From positions 1,798,001 to 1,862,000 of the forward strand of contig CM038998.1 of assembly GCA_017499595.2 (NCBI GenBank): a DNA stretch of 64,000 bases, in the 5' to 3' direction. The stretch's first letter is position 1. Each line of letters opens with the position of its first letter. This stretch comes from Psilocybe cubensis. Taxonomy: Eukaryota. The notes below the pieces were generated by a model. That model saw nothing but the letters and a program-made list of their open reading frames with translations. It did no database searches and was not told the origin of the DNA. Of this stretch, positions 4,695 to 39,926 are shown piece by piece. Position numbers and translations under genes: made by a program.

Positions 4695-6841
4695 ATGCCT
4701 CCCATCCCCTTCAAATTTCAAGGATCTGACGGCCATATCAGACGTCTCGCATTTGAAAACTTGCCCAGCTGGGACGAACTTGCATCCAAGCTCCATTCCC
4801 TCTATGCCATTCCAGTCGATAAAGTTGGTGTCTCGTATTTCGACGACGACAACGACGAGATAACCGCCAGTTCAAACGAAGAACTCCAGGATATCTATCG
4901 GACGACTTTCCAATCTAAGAAACAAATTAGGTTCAAGGTACTGGATATATCTATTGCTCGAGAATGCCCACACTCCGAATCACCTCCCCAAAATTCCACT
5001 CCGAACGGAAACACCTTGGCGAAGACCCTGATAACTTGGATTTTAATGACTGGCAGCGGTTTAATATCACGGACTATCTTGATGACGCACCTCATGCCTT
5101 TGTAGAGCTCATCAGTGGTTTGGATAAGGCTGGTGCGCATTCCGATTCCAACGACGAAAAGTCTACTGTGCAGCCTGTACTCGTTGATAAAGGCAAAGGA
5201 AAGGCGACTTCTACTGGAGCAATGTCAACAACCTCTGCACTGGAGGAAGAGTTTGCACAAAAATATCCCATCCATGTCGTCAATATTGCTCACCCACAAA
5301 GTGACTCAGGCGTCCATCACGAAGGTGAAACTGCATCCCATAAAACATCCTCGGTTCCATTTGATTCTCGTACTCCTGTGGAAAATAATGGCCCCCTTGA
5401 TGATCCGCCTTTACCAGCCATCGAATCGCAGTCCAATACATCTTCGACTCTTACAAATGATATCGCAACATTTCTTTCATCCCTTTCTAACGTTATATCA
5501 GCACATCCCGAGTTGTCTGAAGGACTTCGCAATATTGTACGCAACGCAACTAACGGCACATATTGGGAAGCACATAGAGCTGCCTTATCACGAGCTGCCA
5601 ATGATATGCAACAAGCTACTGGCCAAATCGAACAACAGGCTGCACAGAGGGTTTCTGAGGCCTTGGGCAATCTTTTTCGTTCATTCTCCCAGGTAACAGA
5701 CACCTTGAATCAGAACCAGAACGCTCAACAACCTACGCGTGCTCCAGAGAACCAGCAGCCTCTTCCATGGTATCAACATCCATTTCCGGTAGGTAGGCAC
5801 CCATGGGGCCGCAGATTCCCTGTTGGATTAGACCCCTCCCATTCTCCCCCGTGGCATAGTACGCCTTGGTCTGAAAGGGGACACCGTATCGTGCATGGGC
5901 ATCCACCGCCGCCACCACCTTTTAACCCATTCTCTGGCCCTCCAAAATTTTTCCCTCCACCCTCACCACCTCATTTCGGCCATCCTGAAATTCCTTCTTT
6001 TCCACAGGTATCTGTTCCCCGACCTCCCTCCGCTCCTCCTCCTGGTATTTCCTCTAAGGTTGCAGACCCAAACCCCGTGACAACAAATGAGTCTAGGGCG
6101 GAGGAGCGAGCTACTCCTTTCGCTTCGGTCTATGATCGACTTGAGCATAAACAACAAAAAAAAAATTCTGCAGATGCAGTGGACCACATATTTGTAACAG
6201 CAGATATTCCCGCTCCTGTGAGCTCTAATCAACTCCTTCAACCTCGTAAATCTGAACCGCCTTCGCCCAAGCCGACCTCTCAGGAGTTGAGAGCCCAAGT
6301 TGAAGCAGCCAAACGAAACTACAAAGAACAGAAGGAAAGGTATAGGCGTGAGCGCGAAGAACGCAGAAATCAGGCGGGGGGGAATAGACTCGATGAGGCA
6401 AATTTTTTCTCTACTAACGCTGTAGCTGGTGAAGGCTCCCATATTGTTAGCAAGGCATCAGGGTCATATCCTCAGCTGGAGTTGTACAGTGCTGGACCAC
6501 GTCCATACAATACTCATTTAGGACACGACTCGACCTCTAGAGGTAATTTGGTCTCTCGAGCAATGACACGTATCTCAAAAAGACTGTCAGATGTGAGCGT
6601 TATTTTTTTCCGTGGAAATATGAAACTACTCACCGAATTGCCATTATAGATGGGTTTCTCGGAGAATTCGTATTCCGATCTTCCTGATAAGATTAAGACT
6701 GAGATGCAGTCAAGGAAGGTAATTACAAAGGAGGAGGAAGATGACATCGTCACCAACTTATTGGAGGAACTCCTTTCTCTGCCTTCGAAGTCCTACCTCG
6801 CTTCTAGCTCTGTTGCCAAGGACAAAACTCATAACCTGTGA
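4695..6841 (+). CDS. PB1-domain, proline-rich protein (frame discontinuity near 4938-5056)
   Basis: N-terminal VSYFDDDNDEITASSNEELQD is a PB1/OPCA motif; long ORF 4964-6649; intron about 6593-6649 joins the last exon 6650-6841. Confidence 0.65.
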
Positions 6842-7358
6842 AGGGTGGGGTCTTTGAATTAAATCTGTAAGTACGGAGGAGTCGTACCGGCCTTTCGTTG
6901 TAATGATATTGTGAAATTCTTTGATGTATGACATGGCAGTGTAGATACGGTTATCCAAATGTAATAAACAGAACTACGGCTACTATGTAACAATGTAAGA
7001 ACTACCCGTGTTAAAGTAATGTTATCTCGTCATGTATCGCGTCATTATACATAATCGCGTTGCATAGTACCCCTTAAACCGGTGAATCATTGTCGTCGCG
7101 TTCCTCATTTGGACGACGCGACGCCTTTGTTATGTTAAGTGATGTGATGATGTGGGAAGGTCGGTGATCATTCTTGTCTAGAAAATGTGAGCCTCATGGC
7201 AATTTCCGAACGTTCCTTGACTCGTCGACTAGAATGTGCAATGTTTCCTGATAACGCACTCGGCACTTTTGACACACTACAATGTACCTCAAATGCGCAC
7301 AAGACTAGGTCTGATAAAAGAAGACCGGAGCAAGTTTCGGCCTCTTGAATCACACCTA

Positions 7359-7950
7359 AGATTGGGCTCATCAGGAACCAGCACCCCCTTAGGTAAGCAA
7401 AAGTTGGCTTACCTCCGAACCTTTTCAACCCTTCTGCACTCACACTATTCTACATTTTTGAACCACAGATATGTAGGTTATGCTTCTTTGAACACATCTG
7501 TGGTTTTTTTTTTCAAAAAAATTTTGATCTCAAGAAGTTATAAAGATTTTAATTTTTTTCCTTTTTTTTTAGTCTAACACGTCAGAAATGGTGTTTTCTC
7601 GAGTTTGGGAGATTTTCGAAAATTTGACAATGTTCTTTTGGCCGCTTATATAATGGTACACGTGACCACACGTGACAATAAGTCACGCCTAAGTAATACC
7701 TCTCAGACTCATTATGGACTTCCAGAGACTACAATTTGACCTCTGAGGTGTAATTCTATTATTGTGGGCATAAAGGCTAGTAGTAAGGATTGTATATGCA
7801 CATTTATGAATTTTTTTTTTTTAAACTTTTTGTCTGAAACCATTTTCCGTCAACATAACTTTTGATTTTTTTTTCGAGCTGGATTTTGGCCGCTCTTGGC
7901 GCCAAGCCCATTGATTACGTAAGGGTGCTGGTTTCTGATGAGCCCAATCT
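7359..7950. mobile_element. MITE copy 1 (592 bp), TIR AGATTGGGCTCATCAG(G/A)AACCAGCACCC, TA target-site duplication
   Basis: Terminal inverted repeats of ~28 bp with 1 mismatch, imperfect to ~42 bp; flanked by TA at 7357-7358 and 7951-7952; AT-rich interior with no transposase ORF; second copy at 37624. Confidence 0.95.
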
Positions 7951-8887
7951 TAGCTACACATCTGAGAACTGGCTTTTCGTTTTTCAAAGTCTATGTTTAT
8001 GCAAAAGTGCTCTTGCTTCGCGCTTCCCGATGGCCTGGCAGCGTCACTGGTGATAATTCTCGTCTAGAAGCCATGACACGCTGATTTAAAGGTCGTTTTT
8101 TCATGCTCGGACAATTATTCGCGTTGTGGTCATGATTGTCCACATCAGGACGTGATGATGGTCCGGAGACCTATGGATTCTTCCTTTGTTTCGCGCTCAT
8201 GCTTTTGCTCTTGTATTGGGTCACTTTCCCCATCCACTTAAAGGTTGACAGGAGCAAATGTGGGTAACCGCCTCGGATTGCCCCGACGCGTATGCATCGG
8301 AACGGATGGGACCTTTCATGGTCCATAATTGTCACCATGGAACGTTTGGCAGAGGCCAGAAGGATACAGCCTCGTTTATTCGACCCGACGTTTGTTTCTA
8401 CTCCGGTCAAAGGAGTCTTCGACGCTATTTAAATAGCGACGATGTCCCAAATGTGTCAATCCGCCCTCTTTTCCCCACATTTCACCTTCCGCCCCTCCTC
8501 CTCCCCATCCATACCTTCGAAAAGTCGTGCATCTGACACACCGCCTCTTTCCCTGCCAGGAAACCCATGATTATCGAACATCCATTGAATTTTTCAGTGA
8601 TTAAGAATATAATTGTACGTTTATACTTTGGTTTTTGTGGGCGTCAGTTTATATATGGTAAATGACACGCTTTGACTTCGGGCACAAGACCGTGACGAAC
8701 GTAATCGATAGCGAAGCCACCGCAACTGTTTTGCAGATTAGCTCCGCATTGTTCTATCTTTTCTTTTTGCCTCCCGCATTATACTACATTATTCTCATTG
8801 TCCTTAAGCATTGATATTTTTGCTTCTTTTCTTCGTATGCCTTTTCTCTACGCACAACTTACATACTCACTACCAAAATAGCTTCCC

Positions 8888-31299: not shown

Positions 31300-34200
31300 T
31301 TAATTTAAAGATTTAAAAACTACATCAGCATTGTGTTTGATATCCCAAACCCCTTTCATAAATTCTACAACTGGTTCAGCTGGACATATTGTTGAAGAGA
31401 GGGCCAGCCAAACAGAATCCGGATTAGATTTCCCTGCCTGTACGTAAAGAGCAACAGCGCATTGTTGCAATTCTTCTTGCGCGGTTGTGCTCAAGAATCT
31501 GCGGAATGCCATGATAACCTCCCAGAAAGATGTCTCGTGTTCGTGTACGCCTTGAAGAGCGAGAGTCATTGTCTTGATAAAAGAACGATACAGGCGATGG
31601 GAATGAGTGTATGCGGACTCCGTGCCAACACCTGCTCTATCGTTTCGCGCGAGGGCGCTCGTAGATTCTCCTTTTTCGAGATTTGATAACATCAACTTGA
31701 ACTTTGGCCAGACATCGTCCCACACTCTCCTAAACATGAACTCCCCCATTTCTTTGGACAACGCTTCAACCAGACCCGCAGCAGAGCTGACCACAAATGT
31801 TTCAGAATCTGCCAATCGATTTAGGATAAATGGCCATGCGGAATGAATGGATGGAAGGAGTGCCGATTCTGGCAAGACGGGAACAGATAGAGTCAGCAGC
31901 ACCATAATCTTGCCTCGTATGACAGGGGATTCATGAGTCAGGAAATATAGAGACCTAGTAATGATCTGTTTTGTCAGTGCTTGAACTGGCGTCGGCGGAG
32001 GCTCGTCTGATGAAGATTGGAAATTCGAAAGCCCTGAACCTTCTTGGTATTCCGCTCCGTCTTCCTGTCCATCGTCGTCTTTCCCGCCCCAAGCTTCCTT
32101 CGGAGCAGGGCCGTAGTATGTATCATCTTCTGGAGGGACTTCGTATCTCTTCGGAAGGAATTCAAGGAGATCATCTAGAGAAACTCTCTGCGGTCCACGA
32201 TTTTCGTTCGAGACATCAGCAGATGTATTATTCAATAATGTTTTGTTCGCTCTTGCTTCGACTTCAATGACCTTGATCACTTCCATCAACACTTCGACGA
32301 GACCGTCCACAATTACACCATAACCATGATATTCATCCAGGCGGTCAAAACATTCTTCGACAACATCACCAGCCTTTTCGACGACGTCCGCCCCAACGAA
32401 CCGAATCATGATTCCGAGAACCTTGGTCGCATCAATGTCCAGCCATCTCGGGGTCAGTCGTCGAGACACAGAATCCAAGACATAATCGAAGTTTGACAGT
32501 AACAGGTTGGCAGGTGATGCGTAAGAGGTAGCAATAGTGATGTAGTTCAAGGCAGCAAGGGCGGTCGATGAAAGGAATGACACTGGAGATACCAGAGAAT
32601 GAAGGATAGGATATAAAACGTGGATGAAAAGGGGAGTGAATCGAGCTTGTGAGATTCCCGCTGCGACAGCTAGCAGCTGCAATGCAAGTGCGCGGTGGAC
32701 GATTGGTTGATGTTTAACATTTACTTTTTTGGGCCCTGGAGGTTTGATAATCTTCAGGGTTTCGTGGAGGGGATTCAGGCCGATTTGATGCTGAACCAAG
32801 AAAGAACTCTCTTCTTCAGTGTTTGGGAGAGAAGTGTCGCCTGCGATGTCGTACGATGTGTCCCATATCTCAGCAATACTTTTTGCTAGACTTCTGACTT
32901 GTTTATCCAATCTTTTACTGGCAAGACTGTTGGGTAGTGCAGAAACTTGACCGCTGTAAAGTGAGACATACCCGATACCCTCTAGGAGCCTACAAGCGCA
33001 CCATAGAGCAGCAACAGATGTAATACTAGTTCCACTCAATCCCACACTAATAAACCACTCAACGGCAAACAATCCTGCGTCCCCGCCTGCGGCACCTAAT
33101 GCATGGAAAGTATCATTCAAAGCATTGCGCGTTTCATGAGCCGAGATGTTCTTGAATACCACGTCGGGAAAATTGACCCATTGAAGCGCAGAGGGGTCAT
33201 TTTCTAAAGTAAGCTGTGCTCCAGATGTGTTTGTCACCGTGATTGGAGGTTCTATTATTTCCAAAACAGATAACAGACTCCAGCCCCATTTTTCAACTCC
33301 ACCTGTGGGTCCTAAAAGTTGCCCAATCCCTTTAGCAATAACGGGAAGCGATGCATCAGAAACGGGATCGAACGCAAGGCTACAAACTGCCGTTATCAGA
33401 CCGGCAGCATGCCTAACTCGAGAGTCGATTTGCGTGGACAGAAGTCGGGGAAGGGCAGACAAGTTATCACCAAGAGTGGTCAAAATTGCATGCTGCAGAG
33501 GAGTTTGTGCATCAGATGGCATTGATAAAAGGGTCATCAACTGTCCTCTAGCTTCAGAAGAAACAGATGTGTATTCCGAGATGGACAACGCCAGTAGAAA
33601 TGAAAGCAAAAGAGGTCGAGTCTGAGGTAGCGTCAGTGATGTCGATTGTATAATACTTGAAGAAAATCTCGCAAGGCCGAGCAGGGCGGTGGGAGTTGGA
33701 TGTGAAATAAGGGGTGATAGGGTATTGATGGCAATATGAAGTTGTGTAGATGTGCCGCGTAGCCATGATTCGCTTCTCTGAGTAAAATACGTCGTTTCAT
33801 TGGTAGATTCAAATGTCGTAGACGGTGTATTTAAGAGGTCGGTAAGGTCGTGAACACGGCAAATAGCTCCATCTCTTATACAGACATCGTTTCCGATAGC
33901 TTTTGTGATAATGACACGCATAACCTGAAGGCCTTGGAGAACAATATCGCCATTCGCCCAACCTTTTTTCCCTTGAGGTATACCCAGGCAAATTTTGGTC
34001 ATAGCGCTCACAGTACCTGGTAGCACTGAAGGTAGGAGAGCATCTGGTAAATAGAGGTCGATGATGAGAGCAGTGGTTTCAAGCGACGCGATTTGTAGAG
34101 AAATGTTCGAAGACATCGCTGTCACTATGAGAGAGTCCAGTGTCTGCCCAACTACAGGGGTGAATTTCGGATTTTGCGTGTGCGCTTGAAACAAAGCCAA

Positions 34201-34756
34201 ACGTTCATCTGGAACATTGGGTAAAATTCCTCGCTTCGCCGCTTCTTCACCATCGCGTGGGCGTATTAAAGAACAAATACATCGTGTTGCTGCGTCTTTG
34301 GTCTCATCGTCGCGCTTCTGACTTTTATTAGTATCTGACTTCATGTCCAATTCTCCCACAACAGCACCGCATAACATAAAAATTTGCTCCCAAATTTTAA
34401 TATCGCATGTCCACCACCAGCTATCAACCAGGAGCTTCAGAGCAATCAGAATTTTTTCCAGGATTTGATTTGGTATATCAGCGGAGGCGTTTCGTTGAAG
34501 AAGAGTTGTCAATGGGAGAAAGACATAAGAGATGAGATTTGTTGTGAGCTTTTCGGGTGGGATCTCACCCAATATCTGAATGATTTGCGATAAACGGGCA
34601 GATGTTTCTGCATGTGATGCAGGTGTTAAACGTGACGCGCCCAAGAGAGGGACGCAAAAGGCCTTGAGCTAAGGAGATGTTCTAGTTCATTCACAGAATA
34701 GGTCCGAAACTAAATACCCTTTTGAAATATGCGTTGATGTTAAATTCTTCGCTCAT
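31300..34756 (-). CDS. TTI1: TEL2-interacting protein 1 (HEAT repeats, TTT complex)
   Basis: 1114-aa ORF plus short first exon MSEEFNINAYFKR; YVFLPL, LPGTVS, LLLSNFDYVLDSVS, LLPSIHSAWP, FMFRRVWDDVWP. Confidence 0.85.
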
Positions 34757-35484
34757 AGTTGCGGCAGTAAAATACAGATGAGAACTGTTCAGCTAATTTT
34801 AACTGTGAGTGATGAATTTGACGATCAGTATGTGGAATATGACGCTTACGCGGTGAGTCGTTTTGAATTTTAATATTTAAAGAATATAAGCATGTTTGTT
34901 AGAAGTTACTCCGGCTGTTCATGCATATCTCATATGGGGAGTGTTATTCCCAATGAAAGAATCAAGGTCAAATAGGTGTGGACACCAAAAAGCGCAATAG
35001 TGATGATGGACAAAGCAGGGTAATCTCTCGTGATGTTCTCGAAACGCGTCGACAGTCTGACCTTGGTTGTGATCAATGACGCTTTCACGTGACATAGATC
35101 AGGGTCTCGTGACTCTGGTTATGATTAGATAGCTGTCAATTTTCATCACGGTCAAATCCAAGTCAAAGGCTAGTAGAAAACAATGTCGAAACACATCCCA
35201 CCAATCGCTCCAGGATTCAAAGTATAATGAAGATCCGCATGCTTGGATTATCTGTATGGAGACATCTACCCGATGCTTCCCGTGAGATCCATCCGGATAT
35301 GTTTTAGGAAAACCTCAAAAACTTTCTCTTCCCGTTTTGTTCCCGATCGTATCCTCCATTTATCATTTCTGTATTCAATATTTCGTTATAAAGTTATTGT
35401 TCACTCATATTGCAGGATAATCTCGTTGGTCTATTGTATTTGCATCAACCCTGAGAGGACATTGTCACCGTTCGACCCGATGAG

Positions 35485-38432
35485 ATGACCATCCAACATC
35501 CTCGGCTTCTTCTCGTAGACTCATACGACTCCTTTACACACAAGTGAGCATGTTTTTATTCTTTAAAAATTTCTGATTCTTATCTTATATAGCCTTGCTG
35601 CTCTTTTCCGTCAAGCTATCCCCAATGTTTCTATAACCATTATCAAGAACGATAACTATCGACTTGACGAATTGCGACCATACCTTCCTTACTTCTCATT
35701 CATCGTTATAGGCCCTGGACCCGGATCTCCTGACAATGCGGAAGATATAGGAGTGGTCCGAGATCTTTGGTCTTTAAAAGATCAAGATATACTACCCATC
35801 TTTGGTGTTTGTTTGGGTCTTCAAAGTTTGTCTATCGCACATGGAGCACGCCTCAAGAGGCTGAATGTCGTCAAGCATGGTTTGACATCGTTGATAGAAC
35901 ACAAGTCAACAGATTTATTCAGCAACGTCGGTTCTGTAAAGGCTGTCCGATACCACTCGCTTCATGTAGATCTGGAGGAAGGAGGAGATATAGAAGAACT
36001 TGCTTGGACACATGATGAAGGAAATGGCAAAGTCGTTATGGCAGTCCGGCATAAACATCGGCCATTTTGGGCAGTTCAATATCACCCTGAATCTGTATGT
36101 ACAGATGGAGGTGGCGTAGAGGTGATCCGTAACTTTTGGAAGTTAGCGCAATTTTGGTCCAACGACCAAGGACGGGGCATCATCCCCGGGAACCATAAAT
36201 TGAGCGAATTTGGCACACCTTGGCCCTATTTATCCCCCCCATCGTCATTAACAACTCCAGTTTCATCCTCAAGTGTTTTGACATTGTCGTTAGAGCGCAA
36301 CGACCTCGGCATTGTCGATATCTGCGAATGTTTTGGAGCATCAGACGAAACAAGCAATTTTGCACTCCTTGAATCGGCATCGAACCCTGGTCGATATTCC
36401 ATCCTGGGGTGCCTTTCTACGTCAACGCTTCAGATAAAATATCGCGTCGGAGAATCCTTTCTATCCCTCACCAAGAACGGGGGCACAACTCGGGAAAATC
36501 TTGGTGAACTCGATATTTGGGCATGGCTCTCCAACTTCATGCAAACGAAAAGTTATCGCGGAGATCCTTGCGTACCGTTCTGGGGTGGTTTTGTCGGCTA
36601 CCTGAGTTATGAACTCGGTTTGCAGACACTTCATGTTCCTTTGCGAAGAGATACCGATACACCCTGCACGAATAAACATCCTGATGTCAATTTAGTGTTC
36701 GTTGAACGCAGTATTGTCATTGACTCTCACACGTCTCGCATATTCGTTCAATCTATTGCTCCTGACGACGATCTTTGGGTAAGCGAAACATTTGCGAAGC
36801 TTGAGTACCTTCCACCATCTTCATCATCTGCAATCTCTCCCCACCCAGTCACGAATGCCTATGTTATGCTCCCAGATAAATTTCACTATATCTCCAAAAT
36901 TAAACAGGCCAAAGAACATCTCTTTGCAGGTGATTCATATGAGCTATGTGTCACTGCTCCAACACGTATCTCAGCACCCCCTCTCACTTCAAAACCTTCA
37001 AAATCAAGTTCATGGGAACGATACAAATGCCTACGGAGATCAAACCCAGCTCCACATTCAGCTTACTTACGTTTGCACCCGTCCACCCTGTTGTCTTCAT
37101 CTCCGGAACGATTTCTATCGTATTCTCGTTCACCTGGGTCGACTTGCCAATTACGCCCAATAAAGGGCACAATTCGCAAAGGACCCAATGTCACTCGAGC
37201 TGTTGCAGAGCGTGAATTAGTTGGAAACCCTAAAGAGGTCGCCGAAAATCTGATGATTGTGGATCTTATTCGACACGATCTTCACGGAGTTATTGGTGAA
37301 GACGTCCTCGTCAAGCAATTTTGCTCCTTGGAAGAATATGAAACTGTGTGGCAACTTGTTAGCGTCATTGAAGGGAAACTAGATGACAATTTTCAATCTT
37401 CACGCCCAACGAAAGACATATTGGGTTGGAGGGTTCTGAAAGAAAGTCTTCCTCCTGGTTCGTACTACACCCGCTCTGTGCTATTTGTGTTTTCAATCAT
37501 CTGTGTCTCTAGGTAGCATGACAGGGGCGCCTAAAAAGCGTAGCGTCGAGATTCTGCAAAACTTAGAAGGCGAAGAACGTGGTATTTATTCTGGTGTGTT
37601 TGGATACTGGTGTGTTGGTGGTAAGATTGGGCTCATCAGGAACCAGCACCCCCTTAGGTAAGCAAAAGTTGGCTTACCTCCGAACCTTTTCAACCCTTCT
37701 GCACTCACACTATTCTACATTTTTGAACCACAGATATGTAGGTTATGCTTCTTTGAACACATCTGTGGTTTTTTTTTTCAAAAAAATTTTGATCTCAAGA
37801 AGTTATAAAGATTTTAATTTTTTTTCCTTTTTTTTTAGTCTAACACGTCAGAAATGGTGTTTTCTCGAGTTTGGGAGATTTTCGAAAATTTGACAATGTT
37901 CTTTTGGCCGCTTATATAATGGTACACGTGACCACACGTGACAATAAGTCACGCCTAAGTAATACCTCTCAGACTCATTATGGACTTCCAGAGACTACAA
38001 TTTGACCTCTGAGGTGTAATTCTATTATTGTGGGCATAAAGGCTAGTAGTAAGGATTGTATATGCACATTTATGAATTTTTTTTTTTTTAAACTTTTTGT
38101 CTGAAACCATTTTCCGTCAACATAACTTTTGATTTTTTTTTTCGAGCTGGATTTTGGCCGCTCTTGGCGCCAAGCCCATTGATTACGTAAGGGTGCTGGT
38201 TTCTGATGAGCCCAATCTTAGTGGCGACTGGTCGGTAACCATCCGTAGTTGCTTCAAGTTTGATGAAGAAGGGACATTGGCTGATCCGGAAGATTTGTTT
38301 CATAGACGTGAAGAATGGACTGTAGGTGCAGGTGGTGCCATCACTGCCCTTTCTGATCCAGAAAATGAATGGGATGAGATGGTTACCAAACTGCAGAGCG
38401 TACTGCGGTCATTCGGTGTCCAGGCTTGCTGA
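35485..38432 (+). CDS. ABZ1: Bifunctional aminodeoxychorismate (PABA) synthase PabA-PabB, interrupted by a MITE at 37624-38218
   Basis: LLVDSYDSFTHN, GPGPG, GVCLG, VRYHSL, QYHPES (GATase); SSSPERF, RPIKGT, KEVAENLMIVDLIRHDL, PPGSMTGAPK, RGIYSG..GYW, then after the element GDWSVTIR..GAGGAITALSDPENEWDEM; introns 35544-35592 and 37458-37512. Known as pab1 in mushrooms. Confidence 0.95.
37624..38218. mobile_element. MITE copy 2 (595 bp) inserted in the ABZ1/pab1 coding exon
   Basis: Same TIRs; TA at 37622-37623 and 38219-38220; removing the element plus one TA restores in-frame GGT GGT AGT GGC GAC TGG (GGSGDW). Confidence 0.97.
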
Positions 38433-38667
38433 TTCCTCGTTGCTGGTGTCCCTTTTTTAATTTTTATTCCTTATTAATGATGCCGCATGAATATTAGCAT
38501 ATTTAGTGTGTTCAAATGTATATTCGTGTCTTTGTTCAACCATAGGCAGTGTGTTATAATTGATCATTTTCGTCTCGTGTTTTCGTAAGTTACACCTCAA
38601 ATGGTGCTTCCATACCTTTGCCTCATCTATCAAATATTTAAATGACACTTGCTGGTTGATTTTTGCC

Positions 38668-39926
38668 ATGTCATCATTCTGGTCCAATCGCAAAGCGTTG
38701 TCGTACTGATTAATGATTCGAAGATCGTTGCCCCGTGTCAATTTCAGTGAAGATATAAAGTTGGCGGAACTGTTGAAGATGCTTCTAGCAAAACCACCAA
38801 CAGAGCAATAAGTCGCAATGATTTTAAAAGAGGAGTAAATAAAGGTCCATAAATTTTGTATTGAACCACTGTAGCTAACCATACATCTTAGACAGGATTC
38901 CACGCATGGAACATCAGAATTATCGTCGACCGAAGACTCCCCAACGAACTCGATAAAGATTTTTGACTCTGAATCAGAAAACAGCTCCACAACCCACTCA
39001 TCACTCAGAGTAGAAAACCCGTTACCACCAGTCCCACTGCCAGCGCTGAATCCTCCTCGGTATATTATTTTCTCGTCATGGCAGTTCTTAATTAAAAGTT
39101 CGCCTAAAGTTACAGCATTTTACAACAACAGCGCCAACTGCCTCTGCCTCAATCTGTCAGGTATACCTTTATGCCACAAACAAACCCAGCAAATAGCATG
39201 ATTATGAAACCTATGGATAACCATAACCTACCATCTTTCTACATCTCGATCAACTTGAATTGCTTTGTCGGCTTTTCATGCATCACAACAATCAGAAAGG
39301 AGGGATGGCATGGAGAAATCATTGGAGATTTTGAGTAAGATTCCGCAGAAGGTTGAACGAATTTCGTTTACAAGTCGTTGGTTAGGTTGAATGTCCATGG
39401 TAAACGAAAGCACGGAACAGTGTCTCTTTTCGGATACGAACGGATCCTGGACGATGTTTTTGGTGTCACGTCTAAGGTGTTCCGCGCAGGGGTAAGCCCC
39501 ACCAGGAATATTAAACTTACGGAATATAACGCAAAAACCACTGGCAGACGTACCACTGGTATGGACAAAATCGGTTTGGTAACAGTAAAACGACGTCAAA
39601 TCTGCGCTGGGAAGAATTTTCCGCTGAGGATTCTCCTTATACAACCTTATCGGTAATGACTTTGTAATGATGATCGTAATATGGTCGCTAAACCTCATTT
39701 GCAGTGTTGTCCGGAAAATGGGTATACAAGTAGTGGAAAAACCGTAATAGCACAATTGACTGTGCCCAATACTCTTCGCAGACCTGGCAAAAGCCAAGAA
39801 CTTACAAAGGTAGATATCGCACTTGATAAGTGCAGCTGTCTGGAAGAAATCGTTGTTTCGCTCTTGCTTGTCGAGCGATGCAGAAGAGCCACAGGCGGTA
39901 ATCGAGGTGGACGTTGGGCAGCGTAG
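38668..39926 (+). CDS. Possible multi-exon hypothetical protein
   Basis: Exon-like segments with GT/AG borders (e.g. TYHWYGQNRF..LRWEE; ..IAQLTVP..LEEIVVSLLLVER..*); 5' structure uncertain. Confidence 0.35.

Follow-up and report, generated by a model that had tools for sequence, protein, structure and literature searches.

Whether a transposon that lands in a coding exon is removed as an intron or disables the gene is the question raised by a locus in a 64,000-nt stretch of Psilocybe cubensis DNA (contig CM038998.1 of assembly GCA_017499595.2; hereafter the window, to whose forward strand all positions refer). The gene for para-aminobenzoate (PABA) synthase is interrupted there in its last coding exon, and is otherwise intact, by a miniature inverted-repeat transposable element (MITE) at 37624-38218. 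A first-pass annotation of the sequence had read this element as introner-like, that is, as an intron-forming transposon spliced out through signals of its own as a 564-nt intron (37658 to the AG at 38221), with 11 residues added to an enzyme that stays partly functional. We favour instead, with a probability of about 60%, the reading that the locus is a young presence/absence insertion allele of PABA synthase that is null or nearly so. We propose that a TA-targeting MITE inserted recently in the last coding exon, that rescue of the interrupted (filled) allele would need cryptic splicing from an element donor at 37658 to an in-frame acceptor, and that PABA synthesis would most likely rest on an intact allele in which the site is empty.

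The element, its host gene and the empty site

The element is 595 bp long, lies on the plus strand, is non-coding and contains 37% G+C compared with 45% in the window. It is bounded by 28-nt terminal inverted repeats (TIRs) at 37624-37651 (plus strand) and 38191-38218 (minus strand), which differ by one mismatch; the 3′ TIR, which holds a CTGAT at 38203-38207, is predicted to pair fully with the 5′ TIR. A TA stands on either side (37622-37623 and 38219-38220), and the inverted arms at 37622-37651 and 38191-38220, each consisting of TA plus the 28-nt TIR, thus measure 30 nt and are 97% complementary, with imperfect pairing of the arms extending to ∼44 nt (88.6%). Together with one copy of the target-site duplication (TSD) the insertion amounts to 597 nt (3 × 199). 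Among the stop-free stretches of the window, those internal to the element are short from stop to stop, and the longest that touches it (108 codons) enters from the host exon. A sensitive blastn search with the element found no autonomous partner or transposase within the 64-kb window.

The 28-nt TIR has four matches in the window, belonging to two elements, versus none in 100 shuffled sequences. The second element (7357-7952, plus strand, including its TA duplications at 7357-7358 and 7951-7952) differs from the copy in PABA synthase solely in the length of three homopolymer runs, each by a single T. It is probably intergenic, because the long open reading frames (ORFs) around it end at 6649 and begin at 8882. 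No further related sequence was found when the element was compared with the window by sensitive blastn. Four of the five features of a Tc1/mariner-type, TA-duplicating MITE are present, namely TIRs, a TA TSD, small size without a transposase, and several near-identical copies, and by these features the element is a non-autonomous TA-targeting TIR transposon of the Tc1/mariner (Stowaway-like) MITE kind. A PIF/Harbinger-type 3-bp duplication (TAA/TTA) was considered and rejected, since the flanks would then fail to form a direct repeat and two letters are retained at the empty site.

The host gene (35485-38432, plus strand, from start codon to stop) encodes a PabA-PabB fusion, an aminodeoxychorismate synthase. 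Upstream of the element its reading frame is 100% identical over 621 amino acids to UniRef A0A8H7Y5F3, a P. cubensis aminodeoxychorismate synthase, and the host protein shares 76% identity with its P. cyanescens counterpart. Three Pfam domains score above their cut-offs, GATase (116.1 versus 22.8 bits), Anth_synt_I_N (63.0 versus 23 bits) and Chorismate_bind (196.2 versus 27 bits), the last of which is found in two stretches in the P. cubensis model, split at the insert, and in one stretch in P. cyanescens. When the P. cyanescens orthologue is used as the query, the best match in the PDB is 8hx6, a 4-amino-4-deoxychorismate synthase (E 1.7e-76). The first-pass placement of the insertion in PABA synthase is borne out by the 621-residue match and the Pfam domains, just as its description of a TIR/TSD MITE is by the TIRs, the TA duplication, the second copy and the empty sites described below. 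The gene has two native introns, intron 1 (35544-35592, plus strand, 49 nt, GTGAGC ... CTGAT ... TATAG) and intron 2 (37458-37512, plus strand, 55 nt, GTTCGT ... CTCTAG). A transcript that read through the element would meet an in-frame TAA at 37659-37661, 38 nt into the insertion. Such an unspliced transcript of the filled allele would therefore stop early, and its product would lose the last 106 residues, conserved C-terminal motifs among them.

Contigs (Logan) of four sequencing runs were aligned to 35300-38500, two of them DNA-like (X1 and X9) and two RNA-like (X10 and X11). The RNA nature of X10 and X11 is a guess, and both splice the two native introns at GT..AG joints, the second of these being placed at 37456>37512 (‘cut +1’). 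A 17,233-nt contig of X1, identical to the window at 35300-37621 and at 38219-38500, skips 37622-38218, that is, 597 nt. The same 597 nt are missing from a 32,513-nt contig of X9, which has six differences in its left flank. At both joints two letters (TA) are shared and one TA is kept, the hallmark of a duplicated TA target site. X10 and X11 each contribute one contig across the site (of 712 and 749 nt, respectively), in which only a C stands between 37621 and 38220; the site is again empty. The allele of these two runs carries C for T at 37622 (GGT>GGC, synonymous) and so offers no TA as an insertion target. The empty allele is thus seen in all four runs compared, and the insertion is a presence/absence polymorphism rather than a fixed feature of the gene. 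Since empty alleles exist, the organism need not depend on splicing of the element.

Among the matches listed for the four runs over 35300-38500, no piece bridges a junction between flank and element. The interior of the element is without cover in X10, X11 and X1, which weighs neither way. That the insertion arose only in assembly or from chimeric reads, and is carried by no nucleus, nevertheless seems to us exceedingly improbable. It would agree with the finding that all bridging DNA contigs seen are empty, including the X1 contig whose flanks are identical to the window, and with the fact that none of the listed runs contains more than 0.89 of the sampled words. Mis-assembly does not, however, make a precise TA duplication round complete TIRs, and an equivalent exonic insertion of the same family occurs in a second annotated gene (see below). 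Moreover, contigs built from short reads are interrupted at repeats and lose variants, and so the runs cannot show the filled allele to be absent or heterozygous. Agaricomycete fruit bodies are dikaryotic. The source of a P. cubensis HiFi assembly is given as stem tissue in the excerpted text of the assembly paper (PMC8220353), and an excerpt of a review describes low heterozygosity in P. cubensis cultivars (PMC11856550). Taken together, a dikaryotic source of low heterozygosity would fit identical flanks on filled and empty alleles.

The element family is young and mobile. Three copies are known, the two in the window and a third deduced from a protein sequence (P0242, see below), of which one is intergenic and two lie in coding exons. 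In X1 pieces of the element ends have a depth of 270.6-312.6 compared with 10.7 for the flanks (∼25-29×), and in X9 they have a depth of 111.9-164.6 compared with 40.7 (∼3-4×) and are more diverged (9 differences in 292 nt). These depths give only a rough copy number because one X1 contig follows the element over its first 53 nt (37622-37674), has a loose end at 37674 and diverges beyond it, which reveals another element sharing this end. The latter is possibly a sister MITE or the autonomous partner. Further copies are represented in X1 by contigs that match as far as 38221 and then diverge. The copy at 7357-7952 has C before its left TA and G after its right TA (C-TA-G), and other X1 copies likewise have a right flank that begins with G, a hint of target preference beyond TA. 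The near-identity of the copies, together with the empty sites of other runs, suggests that the MITE is mobile at present. Its movement in a cultivated mushroom could cause strains to degenerate or to become auxotrophic, and the element might serve as a tagging tool.

Splice signals, RNA structure and gene models

The splice-like motifs described in the first-pass annotation are present. The donor-like GTAAGC (37658-37663, plus strand) lies 35 nt inside the element, in the context CTTAG/GTAAGC with its GT at 37658-37659, and overlaps the in-frame TAA. The CTGAT is located inside the 3′ TIR as claimed, and a CTTAG ends at 38221, where the right TA of the TSD and the host G at 38221 form the AG proposed as acceptor. 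Splicing of 37658-38221 (564 nt) does restore the frame without a stop, with a net gain of 33 nt and removal of the TAA. The motifs and arithmetic of the proposed built-in signals are therefore right, but the restoration of the frame by 38221 is not special. Of the seven AGs in 38133-38260, four (38146, 38191, 38221 and 38248) share the frame of the donor at 37658, and there are 18 stop-free in-frame GT..AG pairs in all, so that a restored frame could readily arise by chance. No GT..AG pair removes exactly the inserted 597 nt, the in-frame options leaving 33, 63 or 108 extra nt. The candidate introns from 37658 measure 489, 534 and 564 nt, whereas the two native introns are 49 and 55 nt long. 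When ORF bridging was used to list the native introns of the window, 78 candidates in 28 clusters emerged, but the 13 unambiguous ones lacked a consensus and the method was dropped.

The arrangement of these motifs has some appeal as a 3′ splice site. The AG at 38209-38210 is too near the CTGAT and the next AG, at 38220-38221, is 15 nt from the branch A, while CTGAT is found at the branch-site position in native intron 1. A G follows the TSD at both window copies, and other X1 copies match the element through this base. However, 38221 lacks a pyrimidine tract, unlike 38146, and the intron that it would close is long by the standard of the two native ones. Its dependence on the base next to the TSD is a further difficulty. 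The GTAAGC donor is present in both window copies and the TSD-made AG occurs, as a motif, at both, but the latter is absent at the third copy, in a D-lactate dehydrogenase gene, where the protein sequence P0242 indicates that T rather than G follows the TSD. A TSD-made AG as a general property of the family is thus not upheld.

Predicted RNA structure adds to the case against 38221. The TIR arms would form a 30-bp stem (duplex −58.2 kcal/mol), with z = −6.2 for the fold of the whole stretch. The predicted probability of being unpaired is 0.00 for the CTGAT, 0.10 for the acceptor at 38221 and 0.12 for the donor at 37658, as compared with 0.82 for an internal CATAAC and 0.61 for the T tract and AG at 38146. 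Because the CTGAT and the acceptor at 38221 are both inside the TIR stem, they would be poorly accessible. The internal 3′ splice-site-like block (38121-38146, plus strand) comprises the branch-like CATAAC 21 nt upstream of 38146, the T-rich tract and CGAG. The donor at 37658 is predicted to lie in an 8-bp hairpin (−11.2 kcal/mol) with GCUUACC at 37674-37680, 10 nt past the donor GGUAAGC, and we take GCUUACC to resemble the 5′ end of U1 small nuclear RNA. If the element is spliced, motifs and predicted structure suggest that the acceptor is more likely 38146, with its branch-like CATAAC, T tract and accessibility, than 38221, buried in the TIR stem.

Public gene models agree on the donor and disagree on the acceptor. 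The model P0001 (UniRef A0A8H7Y5F3, 784 aa) contains a 36-residue insert, KIGLIRNQHPLSWILAALGAKPIDYVRVLVSDEPNL, that corresponds to an intron at 37658-38146. P0121 (KAH9486500.1 / XP_047754125.1, 785 aa) has 42 extra residues owing to an added 18-nt micro-exon at 37839-37856 (plus strand; acceptor AG 37837-37838, donor GT 37857-37858), identified by mapping its insert ...HPLSLTRQKCWIL... to the window, and uses the same 38146 acceptor. The same model places a 371-nt 3′ intron, whose signals (GTCATT ... GAAG) are poor, at 38408-38778, and no joint at its start is seen in the contigs of X10 (which reach 38442) or X11 (which reach 38500, the end of the aligned stretch). This intron extends into a convergent minus-strand ORF at 38457-39119. 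On the other side, just upstream of the PABA synthase gene, a minus-strand open frame of 1122 codons (31300-34668) implies divergent transcription.

A search with 40 residues around the insert as the query gave two hits among ten candidates, of which one was a further protein, the P. cubensis D-lactate dehydrogenase P0242. It contains the identical 36-residue insert between ...AVQD and ILNS..., and the shared peptide therefore places the element in a coding exon of a second gene, outside the window. A second D-lactate dehydrogenase record, P0243, keeps 21 of these residues, which corresponds to an acceptor equivalent to the AG at 38190-38191 (plus strand). In both records the insert has the same orientation and frame as in PABA synthase and lies just ahead of the part matched by the Pfam family FAD-oxidase_C (from residue 363). 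All four models thus take the donor at 37658, whereas the acceptors differ (38146, the micro-exon plus 38146, and 38191) and none of the four uses 38221. When shorter predicted proteins were searched for spliced isoforms (query P0001, residues 636-784), 542 hits among 732 candidates included no P. cubensis fragment, the best reaching 57% identity.

The public models might simply be right, with splicing from 37658 to 38146 or 38191, with or without the 18-nt micro-exon, expression of inserts of 21-42 residues and at least one working protein. We regard this as unlikely. Two annotation versions of each of two genes all keep the frame in this manner, and 38146 has the branch-like CATAAC, the T tract and the predicted accessibility noted above. 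Nevertheless, the models are mutually inconsistent, and X10 and X11 read through the start of the poorly signalled 3′ intron of P0121. The TIR arms would both be retained in the messenger RNA after such splicing and could still pair. In the excerpted text of a paper on a P. cubensis HiFi assembly, annotation was with funannotate and RNA of the same strain is not named (PMC8220353). Gene finders favour introns that keep an ORF, and for this reason the models are not independent evidence; all four are treated as frame-keeping predictions, not as transcript evidence. Meanwhile, in the four public P. cubensis records, two of PABA synthase and two of D-lactate dehydrogenase, 21-42 residues are transposon sequence in translation, and these records should be flagged as insertion alleles rather than as the proteins of the species.

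The insert in the protein fold

The first-pass annotation had tentatively placed the insert in a β-hairpin turn, and an AlphaFold model of P0001, the form with 36 extra residues, agrees. The model (built with 53 aligned sequences) has a mean pLDDT (predicted local distance difference test score) of 83.9, falling below 50 over residues 681-710, and the insert sits between the strands at 669-675 and 715-720. The flanking fold is retained in the prediction and the insert is modelled as a low-confidence loop, which would suit the public models, just as the location of the shorter 11-residue insert within a hairpin turn would suit splicing to 38221.

The suggestion that such an insert may be tolerated is made doubtful by the length of this hairpin in other enzymes. 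A spacing pattern that spans the turn was applied to 241 homologues, of which 192 match, 188 of them with a spacing of 16 residues. Of the other four matches, those of the two P. cubensis models, at 52 and 58 residues, are the only true exceptions; P0072 gives a spurious upstream match and P0101 an over-long one that contains the standard form. There are 49 homologues without a match; among the 40 of these that were listed, 39 are without GAPK, their listed ends lying just past LPPG, apparently at the preceding intron, and the remaining one, P0091, is without the segment. Nor are gaps needed to align the turn with the fused bacterial enzyme 8hx6 or with E. coli PabB (1k0e). No other homologue in which the length could be measured has an insert at the hairpin after GYW. 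Because the extra residues fall in a hairpin of invariant length, spliced products with 11 to 42 additional residues are probably inactive or weak, whether they are made as the public models predict or by way of 38221.

Splicing of the 564-nt intron to give a partly functional enzyme is accordingly a very doubtful account of the locus. Its acceptor appears in none of the four public models, its branch motif and AG are predicted to be buried in the TIR stem, and its product would alter the invariant hairpin; the transcripts seen, which are those of the empty-site allele, speak neither way. Of the introner-like MITE as first annotated, the anatomy stands and the donor is the one used by four gene models, but the function is unsupported and 38221 is used by no model.

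Several observations weigh against our preferred reading, that of a null or nearly null allele. Two housekeeping genes carry exonic copies in a single open orientation and frame, as would fit tolerated insertions, although this reflects ascertainment and is not a test because the query could find only that frame. The lengths 597, 489, 534 and 564 nt are all multiples of three, and any of the three candidate introns consequently keeps the frame; the multiples may be a coincidence. The GTAAGC and CTGAT of the element resemble the GTGAGC and CTGAT of native intron 1. The RNA folds are thermodynamic predictions for naked RNA, and the invariant loop length argues for constraint without proving intolerance. 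The X1 contigs establish that the empty allele is present, and neither absence nor heterozygosity of the filled allele in X1 can be deduced from them. Finally, the transcripts seen come only from the empty-site allele (X10 and X11) and are compatible with efficient in-frame splicing of the filled one.

Comparison with known systems

The mimp elements of Fusarium are an example of Tc1/mariner-type (Stowaway-like) MITEs. The P. cubensis element is like MITEs of this type in being short (595 bp), AT-rich and non-coding, with TIRs, a TA TSD, near-identical copies and presence/absence polymorphism. It differs in that no transposase or autonomous partner was found in the 64-kb window, and its class is assigned by features rather than by comparison of TIR sequences. 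Going by titles and the beginnings of abstracts, the papers found on P. cubensis transposable elements include none about the present element, and those on miniature inverted-repeat elements in Agaricomycetes none on intron formation; a paper on Marasmius likewise contained no passage that bears on the question.

The host enzyme is a typical PabA-PabB fusion aminodeoxychorismate synthase, for which pab1 and ABZ1 are fungal gene names. It shares the same three Pfam domains and the conserved motifs with fusions such as 8hx6 and with E. coli PabB (1k0e). Unlike the P. cubensis models, every other homologue in which its length could be measured has an uninterrupted hairpin after GYW.

Introners are intron-generating transposons of Micromonas, Aureococcus, Symbiodinium and other organisms (Gozashti et al. 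2022 preprint; PMC11282704). According to the excerpted texts, MITE-like introners bring one splice site of their own and obtain the second from the TSD, with one case adding four amino acids, and Pezizomycotina is the only fungal group with introners that is named in the excerpt of the preprint (Gozashti et al. 2022). The P. cubensis element resembles them in its TIRs and TSD, in carrying a donor motif and in that its TSD together with a host base can form an AG. It differs in that its removal, as predicted from motifs and models, would be imprecise (+33 to +126 nt), and in that only two genic copies are known, both exonic, plus one intergenic copy. At the two exonic copies the models retain 21-42 element codons as exon. 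The resemblance is one of anatomy, and we do not class the element as an introner. That the family is an incipient agaricomycete introner, an active MITE with a consensus donor near one end, acceptors so placed that all candidate introns (like the element plus TSD) are multiples of three, and exonic open-frame insertions spliced in frame and tolerated in housekeeping genes, strikes us as quite unlikely. If true, it would be the first intron-generating transposon of the TIR/TSD type caught in the act in Basidiomycota, and splicing of the element would extend MITE-type introners to that phylum.

In the main texts of the literature covered, supplements aside, no MITE insertions spliced in frame from exons were found. 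Singular introns of transposon origin are described in general terms in the excerpted text of PMC11282704, and Triticeae DRF1 is a further candidate for splicing of an exonic DNA transposon. The P. cubensis locus offers a natural experiment on whether an exonic TIR transposon is read as an intron in a fungus with short introns, and via which sites. In maize, the Ds and dSpm alleles provide classical cases in which non-autonomous DNA transposons are removed from exons through cryptic splice sites. The PABA synthase allele is like them in being a single exonic insertion of a non-autonomous element with donor and acceptor motifs of its own, from which altered in-frame products are possible. The Ds and dSpm alleles rest on transcript data, whereas the present case is built on motifs and gene models. 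With that difference, a classical exonic DNA-transposon allele, partly removed through cryptic sites, would be the closest working analogy for the P. cubensis locus.

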